In this document: in pieces, positions 13,018 to 53,640 of the stretch
How the letters are laid out: each line of letters begins with the position of its first letter
How positions within the stretch are numbered: the first letter of the stretch is position 1
Notes under the pieces: model-generated
The model's input: only the letters and a program-made list of their open reading frames with translations
Databases searched by the model: none
What the model was told of the DNA's origin: nothing
Program-made: the position numbers and the translations under genes
From: Escherichia coli
GTDB taxonomy: Bacteria; Pseudomonadota; Gammaproteobacteria; Enterobacterales; Enterobacteriaceae
Length of the DNA stretch: 64,000 nt
Direction: 5' to 3' (one strand)
Assembly (NCBI RefSeq): GCF_030384885.1
Contig: NZ_CP128613.1

Positions 13018-13870
13018 AATTCCCTCCGTAGGTTTGGCTCAGCGCACAAGCATCGGCCATGCCATACAGCATGTCGCAGCCGGAACTGGAGCCAATATGT
13101 TTAATTTTTTCTATTGCCTGGGTTGAATTCCCAGGGATGCCATAAATAATGTCGTGAATAAAATGGTGAATATTTTCCCGACAACGTTGCTGTAATGCGG
13201 CTTCCAGCGTTATGGCACTTAGTAACGTGGTATTATTTCTGCCGCGTTGCAGACCGAGATAAAATTTCTCTTTGTATTTTTCCGCCGGATGCCCGGAAAT
13301 AAATAAAATAAGTACCAGCCCGGTCAGATAATCATCGGCTGATGGCGTAAGGCCAATCCCTAACCCCATCATATTAGCAACCGCCAAAGCGATATTTTGT
13401 TTATCGCTTACTGCCTGAATAACTGCCCGTCGTTTAATACGTAATTCTTTATTTAACGCCTGATAAAACGGATTATCGCCGCAATAATTAAACAGGGTTT
13501 CATTTTCCCCCAGGTGCTGATGAATAATGTCGTGCCACTGTTGCCAGGCGATAAGGTGAAATTTTTCAGCAGTCATTTGCAAGGTTGGGGACAGCCAACG
13601 CTGGCAATGACTCATCTCTATATGAAGATGTTGACCAACCGTAATGCCTTGATCGTCAAACTGAACTTTATCACCATGATGGAACAGACCATTAAAGTGA
13701 GTGAGTGCCAACCGACAACTGTTTGGCGCATTGTCGTACTCTTCACAAAGCAGCGTCAGCAACTGCTGGCGGGCCGGAAGTGCGATATTTACCGCTCTGG
13801 CAAAGACCTGTTCAACCTGTCCTTGCCCCCGCTGCGCCAGAAAATCAGCATCCGCAGTTAGCGCCCACAC
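13007..13870 (-). CDS. yahE: DUF2877-family protein, paralogue type of AllH/YlbF
   Basis: 287 aa; position and length match yahE. Confidence 0.8.
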   Translation of the reverse strand: MWALTADADFLAQRGQGQVEQVFARAVNIALPARQQLLTLLCEEYDNAPNSCRLALTHFNGLFHHGDKVQFDDQGITVGQHLHIEMSHCQRWLSPTLQMTAEKFHLIAWQQWHDIIHQHLGENETLFNYCGDNPFYQALNKELRIKRRAVIQAVSDKQNIALAVANMMGLGIGLTPSADDYLTGLVLILFISGHPAEKYKEKFYLGLQRGRNNTTLLSAITLEAALQQRCRENIHHFIHDIIYGIPGNSTQAIEKIKHIGSSSGCDMLYGMADACALSQTYGGNYVS

Positions 13871-13909
13871 ACACCGTCTTTCTGGTGTGTTGATAGCAAG
13901 CCTCCCGGT

Positions 13910-14515
13910 TTATGCACCTGCGGCAATCAGTAACTGCGCAATCTCTTCAAAGCCTCGTTCCCGCGCCAGTTCCAGCGGCGTTTTACCATATTTATCGGTC
14001 AGATGCGGGCTGGCACCGTGCTCCAGCAATAACTGGACAATCGCCTGCTGTTTAATCCCACCATCGTTAAGCACAATCGCTTCCAGTAGCGGCGTCCAGC
14101 CAACATGGTTGGTCTGGTTAACGTTAATATCCGTATGCGCCAAAAGCTCTTTTACAATACTTAAATGGCCTTTTTCACAGGCAGGCGTCAGGCCGACACC
14201 GCCGAAACGGGTTACACAATTAAGGTCTGGTTTAGCCGGTAAAATAATTCGTAGTAGCGTTAAATCACCGTTCAGGCAGCTCATTAAAAAAGGATTTAAA
14301 CAGGTCTGGTCTTGTTTATTAATATCCGCACCGGCATCAATTAACGCCTGAACGCAAGCATATTGCTGATATAAACTTGCCAGCGTAATTGCCGTTTTCC
14401 CCTGGCGATCGCAGGTATTAATATCGACACCCAGCGCAAGGCAGGTTTTTACTTTATCGATATCACCCTGTTGTGCAGCCAATAAATAATCGGCAGGTAG
14501 ATTTTTTATACTCAT
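13910..14515 (-). CDS. yahD: Ankyrin-repeat protein
   Basis: 201 aa with repeated ankyrin-type motifs (G-TPL…A…G…-V--LL-.GA-.N). Confidence 0.85.
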   Translation of the reverse strand: MSIKNLPADYLLAAQQGDIDKVKTCLALGVDINTCDRQGKTAITLASLYQQYACVQALIDAGADINKQDQTCLNPFLMSCLNGDLTLLRIILPAKPDLNCVTRFGGVGLTPACEKGHLSIVKELLAHTDINVNQTNHVGWTPLLEAIVLNDGGIKQQAIVQLLLEHGASPHLTDKYGKTPLELARERGFEEIAQLLIAAGA

Positions 14516-14618
14516 TCACATTCCCCTGGTATTTGTGGCTGTTTTCGATGAATTGAGAATAGCAACGATAATCTGATAAAAGAACCCGCTTAAATTTAAT
14601 TCGCCGTATTTCGCCTTT

Positions 14619-14639
14619 TTGTTGAATGATGTTCAACAA
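14619..14639. promoter_or_regulatory. Perfect palindrome TTGTTGAA-TGATG-TTCAACAA in the yahD/yahC divergent intergenic region (candidate operator)
   Basis: 8-bp arms are exact reverse complements with a 5-bp spacer; fits a T-N11-A LysR-type box, with a LysR gene (yahB) adjacent. Confidence 0.4.
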
Positions 14640-14772
14640 TCTTTTCGCAGTGTGCGGTAGTGCAATATTTGTTTCTTTGACCCGATACCCTTTCACTCAA
14701 TCAGGTTTTATTTCTCTATAGTCTGCACATGTAAGAGTAGCTTTCGTCCATGTCTAACCAGAGGGGAACAAG

Positions 14773-15270
14773 ATGAACGGACTCACGGCAACGGGTGTCA
14801 CCGTCGGTATTTGTGCAGGGCTTTGGCAGTTAGTGTCTTCACATGTCGGGCTCTCTCAGGGATGGGAATTATTAGGAACCATTGGCTTTGTCGCCTTTTG
14901 CAGTTTTTATGCCGCAGGCGGCGGTAAATCGGGGTTTATCAAGAGCCTGGCGGTTAATTACTCCGGGATGGTGTGGGCGTTTTTCGCCGCGCTGGCTTCC
15001 GGTTGGCTAGCCTCGGTGAGTGGGATTTCCGGCTTCTGGGCGAGCGTGATTATGACTGTACCCTTCTCGGCGGTGGTGGTCTGGCAAGGACGTTTCGGTT
15101 TACTGTCTTTTATTCCCGGAGGCTTTCTCGGCATGACGCTATTTTTTGCCAGCGGGATGAACTGGACGGTGACATTACTGGGTTTTCTGGCGGGTAACTG
15201 CGTGGGAATAATTTCAGAATATGGCGGACAAAAATTAAGCGAAGCGACGACTAAACGCGACGGGTATTAA
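14773..15270 (+). CDS. yahC: Small inner-membrane protein
   Basis: 165-aa hydrophobic glycine-rich ORF with multiple TM segments. Confidence 0.75.
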   Translation: MNGLTATGVTVGICAGLWQLVSSHVGLSQGWELLGTIGFVAFCSFYAAGGGKSGFIKSLAVNYSGMVWAFFAALASGWLASVSGISGFWASVIMTVPFSAVVVWQGRFGLLSFIPGGFLGMTLFFASGMNWTVTLLGFLAGNCVGIISEYGGQKLSEATTKRDGY

Positions 15271-15361
15271 AAGTTATTCAAAAATGATTATCTATCTTTA
15301 ACCGATACCTCTACAGTCATGACTGGAGAAATTCAAATTAGATAATGGCGGGAATGGTTTA

Positions 15362-16294
15362 ATGAACTCAATTTTCACCGAAGAAAACCTGTTGGCGTTT
15401 ACTACCGCTGCGCGTTTTAGCAGCTTCAGTAAAGCGGCAGACGAGTTGGGTTTAACCACTTCCGCCATTAGCTACACCATCAAGCGAATGGAAACGGGGC
15501 TGGATGTGGTGCTGTTCACCCGTAACACCCGCAGTATTGAGTTAACCGAGTCCGGGCGTTATTTTTTCCGCAAAGCTACCGACCTGCTGAATGATTTTCA
15601 CGCCATCAAACGCAGCATTGATACTATTTCGCAGGGCATTGAAGCACGGGTTCGCATTTGTATTAACCAGCTGCTTTATACGCCCAAACACACCGCACGC
15701 TTATTACAGGTACTGAAAAAGCAATTTCCAACCTGCCAGATTACCGTCACCACCGAAGTGTATAATGGCGTCTGGGATGCGATTATTAATAATCAGGCGA
15801 ATATCGCTATCGGCGCACCCGACACGCTGCTGGACGGCGGCGGCATTGATTACACGGAGATTGGCGCGATTCGCTGGGCTTTTGCTATCGCCCCGGATCA
15901 CCCGTTAGCCTTTGTGCCAGAGCCGATCGCTGAAAGTCAGCTACGTCTCTACCCCAATATCATGGTGGAAGACACCGCGCATACGATTAATAAAAAAGTG
16001 GGCTGGTTGCTGCATGGGCAGGAGTCGATTCTGGTGCCAGATTTCAACACCAAATGTCAGTGCCAGATTTTAGGCGAAGGAATTGGTTTTTTGCCGGATT
16101 ACATGGTCCGTGAGGCGATGGCGCAATCCCTGCTGGTTACCCGACAAATCCATAATCCGCGCCAGGATTCACGCATGTTACTGGCGACCCAGCACTCTGC
16201 CACCGGTCAGGTGACGCAGTGGATTAAAAAACAATTTTCGCCAAATGGCATATTAACGGGGATCTATCAGGATTTACTGCATCGGGAGAATTAA
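15362..16294 (+). CDS. yahB: LysR-family transcriptional regulator
   Basis: 310 aa; N-terminal winged-HTH with the typical LysR signature and a C-terminal substrate-binding domain. Confidence 0.85.
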   Translation: MNSIFTEENLLAFTTAARFSSFSKAADELGLTTSAISYTIKRMETGLDVVLFTRNTRSIELTESGRYFFRKATDLLNDFHAIKRSIDTISQGIEARVRICINQLLYTPKHTARLLQVLKKQFPTCQITVTTEVYNGVWDAIINNQANIAIGAPDTLLDGGGIDYTEIGAIRWAFAIAPDHPLAFVPEPIAESQLRLYPNIMVEDTAHTINKKVGWLLHGQESILVPDFNTKCQCQILGEGIGFLPDYMVREAMAQSLLVTRQIHNPRQDSRMLLATQHSATGQVTQWIKKQFSPNGILTGIYQDLLHREN

Positions 16295-16335
16295 TCGCTG
16301 CCAACCTCCCGATGCGCTGTGAATAGCGGTTTACA

Positions 16336-31807: not shown

Positions 31808-31895
31808 ATATTACCGGAGATATGACAGAGTGAAGATCAATATCACTCCCCTGTTAAAAGATTCTTGTCGTCTCAGGTAAAATACATGATTAATA

Positions 31896-32780
31896 TCAAT
31901 CATGTATTTTTACAGCAAGACAACCACGAACAAATTCAGGATTAAAATGTTTTACCGACTCCCCAACATAACCCAAATCAAGCGAACTAATTTGTGCCAT
32001 TTCTTTCTCTGTCAGTGAGAAATCCCAGATAGCAAAATTTTCTTCGATACGCTGTTGATGTGTCGATTTCGGAATAACGACCACTCCCCGTTGAATATTC
32101 CAACGCAGAATGACTTGAGAAATCGATTTTTGATGGGCATCTGCAATACTCTGAAGCAGATTATTTTCAAAGGGTTTATGTCTTCCACCGCCTAACGGAG
32201 CCCATGCTTCAGGCTTCACGTTATAATACTTCATGGTTGCCAGCGCCTCTGGTTGGGCAAAATAGGGATGCAACTCGACCTGGTTGACCATCGGTTTAAC
32301 TCTTGCCGTTTCACAAAAGTTCGCCAGAACATGAGGATAGAAATTGGAAACCCCAATTGCTTTTAATTTGCCCTCTTCATAGGCATCTTCGAGTGCACGC
32401 CACGCACTGAAATAATCGCGCATAGCCTGGTGCAATAAATAGAGGTCGAAGTATTCTAGTCCCGATTTTTTTAATGACGCTTCAATACCTGCTTTTGCCG
32501 TATCCTGATTCAACATATCCTGCACCCACAATTTAGACGTTATAAATAACTCATCTCGGGTACATAAACCTTCAGATATAGCTTCACGAACGGCTTCACC
32601 GACGGCATCTTCATTACCGTATACCGCTGCAGTGTCGATGAGTCGATAACCCGTGCGGATAGCGTTCAACACTGACTGTTTGCACACGTTTTTATCGGTA
32701 ACCTGAAAAACACCAAATCCCATCATCGGCATTTTCAGATTGTTACTTAATACGGAAAATTCCACTGTCAGTCCCTCCAT
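31896..32780 (-). CDS. Aldo-keto reductase family oxidoreductase
   Basis: AKR motifs (GYRLIDTA…YGNE; LxxxGxxYxDLYLLH; IPKS). True start may be the internal MPMMGFG (~32732). Confidence 0.8.
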   Translation of the reverse strand: MEGLTVEFSVLSNNLKMPMMGFGVFQVTDKNVCKQSVLNAIRTGYRLIDTAAVYGNEDAVGEAVREAISEGLCTRDELFITSKLWVQDMLNQDTAKAGIEASLKKSGLEYFDLYLLHQAMRDYFSAWRALEDAYEEGKLKAIGVSNFYPHVLANFCETARVKPMVNQVELHPYFAQPEALATMKYYNVKPEAWAPLGGGRHKPFENNLLQSIADAHQKSISQVILRWNIQRGVVVIPKSTHQQRIEENFAIWDFSLTEKEMAQISSLDLGYVGESVKHFNPEFVRGCLAVKIHD

Positions 32781-33871: not shown

Positions 33872-33991
33872 TTATCGCTATGTCTAAATGAATTTATAAC
33901 AAGACTACTGTCAGGCAATTCAATAAATAATGGCGTTGAAGATGTCAACGCCATTATTGTTTATTAGAATGTTACTTTCATACTCTTAATA

Positions 33992-42399: not shown

Positions 42400-43542
42400 A
42401 TGACAAATAAACACCCATCATTGTTTTCTCCTTTTATGCTGACAGAAAAAATAAAGCTACGTAATCGTATCGTTATGGCCCCTATGACGACCTGGTCAGC
42501 GAATCCTGATGGAACCATCTCTGAGCAAGAACTCGAATTTTATAAACGCCGCTCACAAAATGTTGGTTTAGTAATAACAGGATGTACCTATGTCACGCCA
42601 AGCGGCATTGGGTTTACTCATGAATTTGCCGCATATGACGACCGTTTCATTAACAGCCTTGAAAAGTTAGCAGCGGCAGCCCAAAGTGGGGGTGCTCCGG
42701 CTATTTTGCAGATTTTCCACGCCGGTAATAAAGCCATCCCGGAGCTTGTACCAAATAACGATGTTATTAGTGCCAGCGCATCAAGCGTAAAATCTGGTGA
42801 CTTTATGAAGAGAGTGGTACAAAGCAGGGAAATGACTGAAAACGAAATTCAGGAAACCATTAGAGCATTCGGAGATGTCACAAAAAGGGCGATTAAAGCA
42901 GGTTTTGATGGCATTGAACTTCATGGTGCGCACGGATTCCTTCTACAGAATTTCTTCTCCCCTCTATTTAACCAGCGTAATGACCGATGGGGAGGAGATC
43001 TCGAAGGACGTATGCGCTTCCCGCTGGCCGTATTACAGGAAGTAAAAAATGTAGTCTATGAATATGCGACAAAGCCCTTTGCCATCGGTTACAGAATATC
43101 TCCTGAAGAATCTGCAACAGGGGGGCTGCGGATAGAGGATACTTATAAACTCCTTGATCGGCTCATTTCATCCGGTATTTCGTATATACATACCTCGCTG
43201 GTCAGTATTAACGATAGCTACCCTGTTGAGTCGCCAAATGGCCCCCGAACTATTGAATTGATTTTAAATCATATTGCAGGCAGAGTGCCGGTAATCGCTG
43301 CAGGTAAAATACGCACACCGTCTCAGGCTCAAGAAGCAATTTCCACTGGCCTGCCACTTGTTGCGATCGGTAAAGGGCTGGTGATAAATCCAGAATGGGT
43401 GACTTTAGCTGAATCAGGTAGAGGCCATGAAATTCAAACAACCCTTAATCCACAACTTGTTCCTGAATTAACCATTCCGGATAAACTATGGGATCAAATT
43501 CAGACATCGAAAGGAACTGGCTGGTTTCCGTTAATGGATTAA
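42400..43542 (+). CDS. NADH:flavin oxidoreductase (Old Yellow Enzyme family)
   Basis: 380 aa; the OYE-typical N-terminus (…LRNRIVMAPMTT…) and ELHGAHGFLLQNF active-site region. Confidence 0.8.
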   Translation: MTNKHPSLFSPFMLTEKIKLRNRIVMAPMTTWSANPDGTISEQELEFYKRRSQNVGLVITGCTYVTPSGIGFTHEFAAYDDRFINSLEKLAAAAQSGGAPAILQIFHAGNKAIPELVPNNDVISASASSVKSGDFMKRVVQSREMTENEIQETIRAFGDVTKRAIKAGFDGIELHGAHGFLLQNFFSPLFNQRNDRWGGDLEGRMRFPLAVLQEVKNVVYEYATKPFAIGYRISPEESATGGLRIEDTYKLLDRLISSGISYIHTSLVSINDSYPVESPNGPRTIELILNHIAGRVPVIAAGKIRTPSQAQEAISTGLPLVAIGKGLVINPEWVTLAESGRGHEIQTTLNPQLVPELTIPDKLWDQIQTSKGTGWFPLMD

Positions 43543-44938: not shown

Positions 44939-44972
44939 ATGTTGGTGTATTGATTACACCAACATTAATTTT
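44939..44972 (+). terminator. Rho-independent terminator of rpmE2-rpmJ2
   Basis: 11-bp perfect stem ATGTTGGTGTA / TACACCAACAT with a 5-nt loop, followed by TAATTTT. Confidence 0.7.
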
Positions 44973-53611: not shown

Positions 53612-53640
53612 TAAAAATGGCGCTGTATTTGCGCCATTTT
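53612..53640. terminator. Bidirectional terminator-like hairpin (AAAAATGGCGC … GCGCCATTTTT) 3' of yagU
   Basis: Perfect stem flanked by an A-tract and a T-tract. Confidence 0.5.

Follow-up and report, generated by a model that had tools for sequence, protein, structure and literature searches.

Organization of the yah Locus

The yahB and yahC–yahJ genes belong to a dense cluster of uncharacterized E. coli genes. In the window (the whole 64-kb stretch of DNA that was analyzed), yahD and yahC face away from each other across a 257-bp intergenic region, and yahB, which encodes a LysR-type transcriptional regulator (LTTR), follows yahC. The genes and the palindrome that is the subject of this work are:

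13910–14515, minus strand: yahD, ankyrin-repeat gene that opens the proposed target operon yahDEFG(IJ)
14619–14639, no strand assigned: site 1, TTGTTGAA-TGATG-TTCAACAA; proposed YahB recognition site (RBS)
14773–15270, plus strand: yahC, DUF1097 membrane protein; located between the operator region and yahB
15362–16294, plus strand: yahB, LysR-type regulator with Pfam HTH_1 and LysR_substrate domains; proposed binder

Beyond yahB lies pdeL, and downstream of yahD lie yahE, yahF, and yahG, which are AllH/AllF/AllG-type genes. Site 1 is within the yahD (minus)/yahC (plus) intergenic region, with its center 114 bp from the start codon of yahD and 144 bp from that of yahC. An earlier note on this DNA had described an exact 8-5-8 palindrome here. 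Positions 14619–14639, read from the window, comprise TTGTTGAATGATGTTCAACAA, the 8-nt arms of which are 100% complementary across a 5-nt spacer, and the gene calls bear out the described setting of divergent yahD and yahC with the LysR gene yahB nearby.

The core of site 1, TTGAA-N5-TTCAA, spans 14622–14636, and its half-sites TTGAA (14622–14626) and TTCAA (14632–14636) have centers 10 bp apart, or one helical turn. Site 1 thus exhibits the interrupted dyad with T-N11-A and half-sites ~10 bp apart that is expected of an LTTR site, and it occupies a divergent region between a regulator gene/operon and a target operon. The T-N11-A geometry to which the earlier note drew attention is real but trivial, since any 21-bp palindrome with T and A at those positions shows the same.

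Perfect inverted repeats with arms of at least 8 nt and loops of 0–12 nt number 34 in the window, where ~13 are expected. In a Markov model of the 257-bp region, at least one such repeat was generated in 4.9% of trials, and one with a loop of exactly 5 nt in 0.5%. A search for other exact copies, as the earlier note had proposed, found the site 1 pattern once in the window and at a median of one location per E. coli genome. A dispersed palindromic repeat of the REP/BIME type requires many copies per genome and was rejected, given that site 1 is single-copy. The above-chance standing of site 1 is derived from its conservation, the exactness of the palindrome being weak evidence. Other long perfect inverted repeats in the window, with arms of 10–11 nt, are located at 31881–31908, 33929–33955, 44939–44965, and 53614–53640; AATACATGATT-AATATC-AATCATGTATT is an example of these.

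Conservation of Site 1 Across Genera

A scan for proteins related to YahD yielded 34 loci. Site 1 is kept in 21 orthologous loci at the same distance from yahD (center ~114 bp from the ATG), with the consensus TTRTTRAA-N5-TTCAAYAA, although these are mostly syntenic, related genomes and part of the conservation reflects shared descent. The site is held by members of Escherichia, Kluyvera, Klebsiella, Raoultella, Citrobacter, Pseudocitrobacter, and Shimwellia, and occurs at the same yahD distance in Erwinia persicina and E. rhapontici. In an alignment of 17 sequences, identity was 0.90–0.93 in the arms and 0.96 in the 10-position core, compared to 0.64 in the spacer, 0.74–0.75 in the immediate flanks, and 0.79 across the whole intergenic region.

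Changes within the arms were independent G/A or C/T transitions by which complementarity is lost, and compensatory changes were found in none of the 8 arm pairs. Of the 21 sequences, 11 have lost pairing at one pair and 7 at another, and pairing was no better than in shuffled sequences. Judged from these comparisons, the conserved feature is a pair of TTRAA/TTCAA half-sites and not the exact 8-5-8 palindrome.

A second conserved element adjoins site 1:

14652–14664, no strand assigned: conserved block GTGCGGTAGTGCA, on the yahC side of site 1 and unrelated to the motif

Identity was 0.93 over 14651–14664, and the block is kept in Shimwellia (which lacks yahC) and in Aeromonas. A second factor may bind there.

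Spacer Alleles Within E. coli

The locus is present in ~5076 complete-genome E. coli records. Nearly all of them have one of three alleles, which differ only within the spacer. The allele of the window, TGATG, was identified in 3248 of 5076 records and TAATA, the K-12 allele, in 1539, while AGATG was present in both of two records sampled from a band of 281 (of 5076). The TAATA spacer turns the K-12 site into a perfect 10-1-10 palindrome, TTGTTGAATAATATTCAACAA. All three positions that are polymorphic among E. coli genomes within the 21 bp fall inside the 5-bp spacer, for which we calculate a chance of ~0.01. K-12 and the window differ at four positions over the 257-bp intergenic region, two of them in the spacer (14627–14631). 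An origin of TGATG/TAATA by quasi-palindrome template switching was rejected; the changes are on opposite arms and neither allele is copy-corrected from the other.

The coding DNA of window positions 13800–15400 is ~96% identical to most E. coli, and 99.9% identical only to strain 2013C-4282, whereas the intergenic region (14516–14772) is 98–100% identical to thousands of genomes. This contrast could mean that the control region is strongly constrained or that the segment is a mosaic produced by recombination. In one genome (E. coli 210221272), an IS1 element is located ~6 bp from the palindrome edge (equivalent to window position ~14613), where it replaces the yahD side of the region and leaves the palindrome and yahC intact.

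Co-occurrence of the Site With yahB

The motif and the regulator gene co-occur across genomes, as expected for the operator of an LTTR. The conserved site was identified in 21 of 23 yahB-linked yahD loci and, in addition, in Aeromonas. The two loci outside the 21 are those of Erwinia sp. OLFS4, with a degenerate match only, and R. planticola, which was left out of the alignment and has a site identical to that of R. ornithinolytica. Conversely, the motif was absent in all 10 yahD loci that have upstream sequence and no detected yahB; yahD loci of this kind, without a motif match, belong to Bacillus, Cytobacillus, Brevibacillus, and Herminiimonas. In the Brevibacillus locus that was checked, a PucR-type regulator is found upstream in place of yahB. 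In Brevibacillus porteri, a Firmicute (locus L033, 2091–3836), this PucR-family (purine catabolism) regulator is divergent from yahD-E-F-G, which hints that the yahD cluster acts on a purine-derived compound.

Among the loci with the site, yahB is the constant neighbor. In Enterobacteriaceae, the gene order is yahB-yahC, the divergent region, and then yahDEFG. Shimwellia, Erwinia, and Aeromonas lack yahC, and yahB stands directly opposite yahD there. In Shimwellia and Erwinia, yahEFG are absent as well and the site lies between the divergent yahB and yahD; in E. persicina, an amidohydrolase gene follows yahD. In Aeromonas cavernicola, yahB is divergent from yahD-allF-allG, and TTATTGAATTATTTTCAACAA is centered 116 bp upstream of yahD with its flanking blocks also conserved. 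The neighboring LuxR-type regulator PdeL was rejected as the binder, as pdeL was detected only in Escherichia loci and the site is conserved well beyond them.

More distant taxa carry the same core. In Pasteurella testudinis, a perfect palindrome with the exact core TTGAATAAAATTCAA is located 120 bp upstream of yahD, with yahB inside the operon and the sequence around the palindrome otherwise unrelated. This locus also has a second, near-core site (L051, 4346–4360; TTGAAAAGGATTCAC) at a distance of 33 bp from its main palindrome, on the flank that faces away from yahD; the weaker site of E. coli (see below) is on the opposite flank. In Microvirga, the best matrix match in 21 kb, which contains TTGTTGAA, is in the divergent region between yahB and a carbamate-kinase gene. 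Two other matches in the same locus (L053), an exact core TTGAATATTATTCAA downstream of an EamA transporter gene (16309–16323) and a 17.6-bit matrix match between an MFS transporter gene and an AraC gene (14335–14355), may be further targets of the YahB homolog or chance occurrences. Matrix scans returned only weak, AT-biased matches in Neisseria sp., no convincing site close to a Providencia yahB homolog that has no yah genes nearby, and no convincing site in the Herminiimonas loci.

Related Sites Upstream of yahB and yahD

A position matrix was built from the orthologs of site 1 only, and the 64-kb window and orthologous loci were scanned with it. Two further sites were identified:

15264–15284, plus strand: site 2, GTATTAAA-AGTTA-TTCAAAAA (i.e., GTATTAAAAGTTATTCAAAAA); proposed YahB autoregulatory site
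14590–14604, no strand assigned: weaker related site, TTAAA-TTTAA-TTCGC; proposed activation-site (ABS) partner of site 1

Site 2 overlaps the yahC stop codon and precedes the yahB ATG by 78–98 bp. As the best non-self match in the window, it scores 20.4 bits (the next unrelated match scores 10.2), and it ranks second in all 18 loci with yahC-yahB. It is also the sole conserved island in the yahC-yahB spacer, the length of which varies from ~90 to 215 bp.

The weaker site matches 8 of 10 core positions and is located on the yahD side of site 1, 32 bp from it center to center. Its column identity is 0.97 across genera, and it is the third-best matrix match in 3 of the 18 yahC-yahB loci (L017, L023, and L026). 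We infer an ABS role for this site. A third core match, at 43253–43267, is inside an ORF and was treated as chance.

Predicted Promoters

Promoter elements were predicted for each of the three genes:

14556–14564, minus strand: extended −10 of yahD, TGcTATTCT; implied start near 14549
14579–14584, minus strand: poor −35-like hexamer of yahD, TTCTTT; placed by assuming a spacing of 17 bp from the −10
14717–14722, plus strand: −10 of yahC, TATAGT
15288–15317, plus strand: yahB promoter, −35 TTATCT (15288–15293) and −10 TACAGT (15312–15317)

At the predicted yahD −10, TTGCTAT.CTC is invariant across genera, including Aeromonas, and TTCTTT is inside the invariant GGGTTCTTTT block of the predicted promoter (alignment identity 0.92). 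Relative to the predicted yahD start, site 1 is centered at ~−80 and the weaker site at ~−48. The predicted yahB promoter, TTATCT-N18-TACAGT, places site 2 at ~−50, and its TA.A.T is conserved in the alignment. ACTATA, the predicted yahC −10, is conserved across genera (identity 0.91 for 14715–14724) and would place site 1 at ~−100. A sigma-54 promoter around TTGCT was rejected, no GG-N10-GC element being seen when the sequence was read by eye.

A consensus promoter scanner called no promoter here, and Cappable-seq data (U00096.2 plus-strand entries) include no start at the predicted yahD promoter. The absence of such a start fits a silent, activator-dependent yahD promoter but is not proof of one. 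The Cappable-seq data do include a weak start on the yahD strand (window ~14726, minus strand; U00096.2 334293 +), which is ~210 nt ahead of the yahD ATG and within the predicted yahC −10 region; its transcript would run through the palindrome.

The YahB Protein and ChIP-exo Data

The nearest NCBIfam models to YahB are AllS (best) and PunR (second), with both matches below the cut-offs of the models. YahB is 38% identical to AllS and 24% to MetR. Its helix-turn-helix (SFSKAA.ELGLTTSAISYTIKRME) is nearly invariant among orthologs.

In published ChIP-exo data for YahB-8myc in K-12 grown in glucose M9, only three very weak sites were reported (signal/noise below 2), and the listed sites include no peak at yah. 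For the 40 factors of the same study, no peak is listed at ~50 bp or less from the palindrome. Effector missing from the culture would offer an explanation for the lack of a YahB peak. The same data (Gao 2021) contain a strong YfeC peak inside yahC, with a signal/noise of 56 and also marked as RNAP-bound, in the 5′ part of the gene (K-12 U00096.2 334131–334162; window ~14860–14890) and >200 bp from the palindrome.

A Predicted YahB Operator and Its Alternatives

Collectively, these observations suggest, with a probability that we place at roughly two in three, that the palindrome is the main recognition site of a predicted LysR-type operator for YahB that activates the yahD cluster. The earlier note had put the palindrome forward as the candidate operator of the yah module and tied it to YahB, a proposal that now has computational support; from the sequence comparisons, we infer that YahB would bind at site 1. 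Several lines of evidence point to this reading: the site is positionally conserved in 21 loci with its arms constrained and its spacer free; it co-occurs with yahB, including in genomes without yahC where yahB and yahD are directly divergent; Pasteurella has the same core upstream of yahD, and Microvirga has it next to the yahB homolog; a second conserved copy is located upstream of yahB; and the geometry is that of the validated PunR operator. While the site itself is supported, the proposal requires amendment in that it is one of three related sites, and it is the half-sites that are conserved rather than an exact palindrome. This is an ordinary kind of bacterial control element and not a new mechanism, and it has not been described before for YahB. 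Against this reading stand the lack of a yah peak in the YahB ChIP-exo data, which weighs most, the lack of a Cappable-seq start at the predicted yahD promoter, a predicted recognition-site position (~−80) upstream of the textbook −65, the Providencia and Herminiimonas loci without a convincing site, and the share of the conservation that is due to common descent.

If this reading is correct, a YahB tetramer would occupy site 1 (~−80) and the weaker site (~−48), and binding of an effector by YahB would activate the yahD promoter, whose predicted extended −10 and poor −35 are typical of activator-dependent promoters. DNA binding by YahB might itself depend on the effector, as is the case with PunR in vitro. 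Activation would turn on yahDEFG(IJ), paralogs of the AllS-controlled allFGHK oxamate-transcarbamylase/carbamate-kinase genes, and site 2 would permit autoregulation of yahB.

The alternative that the palindrome is an operator for another regulator (MetR, ArcA, or another binder of AT-rich sites) appears unlikely. In its favor, the TGTTG...TGTTC direct repeats of the window allele recall ArcA half-sites. ArcA is also known from published work to regulate the allF operon, which is paralogous to yah genes; TGAATGATGTTCA is an exact fit to the published MetR consensus TGAA-N5-TTCA; and the YahB ChIP-exo result at yah is negative. However, the ArcA-like repeat has a 10-bp rather than an 11-bp spacing and is lost in the K-12 allele. 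The MetR consensus is unspecific, with 5 matches in 64 kb, and it is not the part of the site that is conserved, as TAAA rather than TGAA forms the left half in 11 of the 21 orthologous sites. The low identity of MetR to YahB (only 24%) and the lack of a methionine link at the locus likewise count against MetR. Moreover, the motif accompanies yahB in Aeromonas, Pasteurella, and Microvirga and occurs again ahead of yahB itself, which argues against any other regulator. ArgR (TGAAT-N4-ATTCA), Cra and other LacI-type regulators with even-length sites, IHF, CRP, FNR, and TyrR were rejected on spacing or half-sites.

We consider it more doubtful still that the palindrome lacks a specific function and is a chance inverted repeat in a conserved, AT-rich promoter region, perhaps acting as a bending or UP-like element. 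The 34 perfect repeats with 8-nt arms in the window, the ~5% chance of such a repeat in the region, and the fairly high conservation of the whole intergenic region (0.79) would be consistent with this. Chance does not readily account for the contrast in identity between arms and spacer, the confinement of all three E. coli polymorphisms to the spacer, the recurrence of the motif at yahB far above background, or the presence of the same core in unrelated intergenic DNA of Pasteurella and Microvirga. A role in nucleic-acid structure, either as an RNA hairpin (attenuator or terminator) in a long yahD leader or as a DNA cruciform, is highly improbable. The weak Cappable-seq start upstream would indeed transcribe the palindrome, and a hairpin is predicted at −7.4 kcal/mol (z = −2.2), but the broken and uncompensated pairs described above speak against it, as do the absence of a GC-rich stem and of a U-tract. 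Given that broken pairs are uncompensated, that no terminator was called, and that Rfam gave no match, we interpret the arms as protein half-sites and not as a hairpin.

The operator reading can be extended to the locus as a whole, in a form that we offer tentatively and regard as rather unlikely to hold in full. The yah locus would be a three-site, effector-gated YahB operator system, with recognition and activation sites at yahD and a separate site at yahB, that holds yahDEFGIJ silent until a nitrogen-rich compound appears. The yahDEFGIJ genes would constitute a second oxamate-transcarbamylase-like/carbamate-kinase pathway, and the spacer alleles (TGATG, TAATA, and AGATG) would tune operator strength between E. 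coli lineages.

YahB has no target on record, and a motif with three candidate sites provides a handle for binding assays and effector screens. It also connects the yah cluster with the AllS/allFGHK paradigm, in which nitrogen is recovered anaerobically from the products of purine breakdown.

Comparison With Known Systems

LTTR operators typically comprise a T-N11-A dyad, with a strong RBS usually at ~−65 and a weaker, promoter-proximal ABS at ~−35. The yah locus resembles this architecture in having a strong site and, ~3 turns away toward the predicted promoter, a weaker one in the divergent region between regulator and proposed target, and a further site at the predicted promoter of the regulator itself. 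It differs in that the predicted positions (~−80 and ~−48) are further upstream than −65/−35, and in that, in Enterobacteriaceae, the regulator gene is separated from the operator by yahC.

MetR is also a member of the LysR family, and its published consensus, TGAA-N5-TTCA, has an exact match in the window site. Across orthologs, the yah site departs from the MetR box, with TAAA as the left half in 11 of 21 sites, and the neighborhood contains no methionine gene.

AllS binds a 60-bp fragment of the divergent allD-allF intergenic region and activates allFGHK, and these targets are paralogous to yahEFG and yahI. Unlike yahB, allS is not adjacent to its target allF, and the AllS system contains neither an ankyrin (yahD) nor a DUF1097 (yahC) gene. 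No effector has been found for AllS, and no TNAA-N5-TTNA dyad was found when the AllS-bound allD-allF fragment was read by eye.

PunR (YdhB) of E. coli, a close relative of YahB, has a validated operator of the same geometry. This operator, TCAA-N5-TTGA within TsttwTCAAwAwwwTTGaaGGCA, lies between the divergent punR and punC; phylogenetic footprinting predicted it, and ChIP-exo, fluorescence polarization, and EMSA later validated it, with fluorescence polarization revealing DNA binding only with adenine. PunR binding has thus been demonstrated by experiment, whereas that of YahB is predicted, and the PunR target is a purine transporter rather than a catabolic operon. The PunR operator is an AT-rich interrupted palindrome between a divergent LysR gene and its target, as is proposed for site 1, and the yah sites share its TNAA-N5-TTNA geometry. 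The PunR core TCAA-N5-TTGA itself is replaced in the yah sites by TGAA/TAAA-N5-TTCA. The two differ in the symmetric base 5 bp from the center, which is C/G for PunR but G/C (or A) at the yah locus. The motif predicts that specificity is switched between YahB and PunR at a single base.
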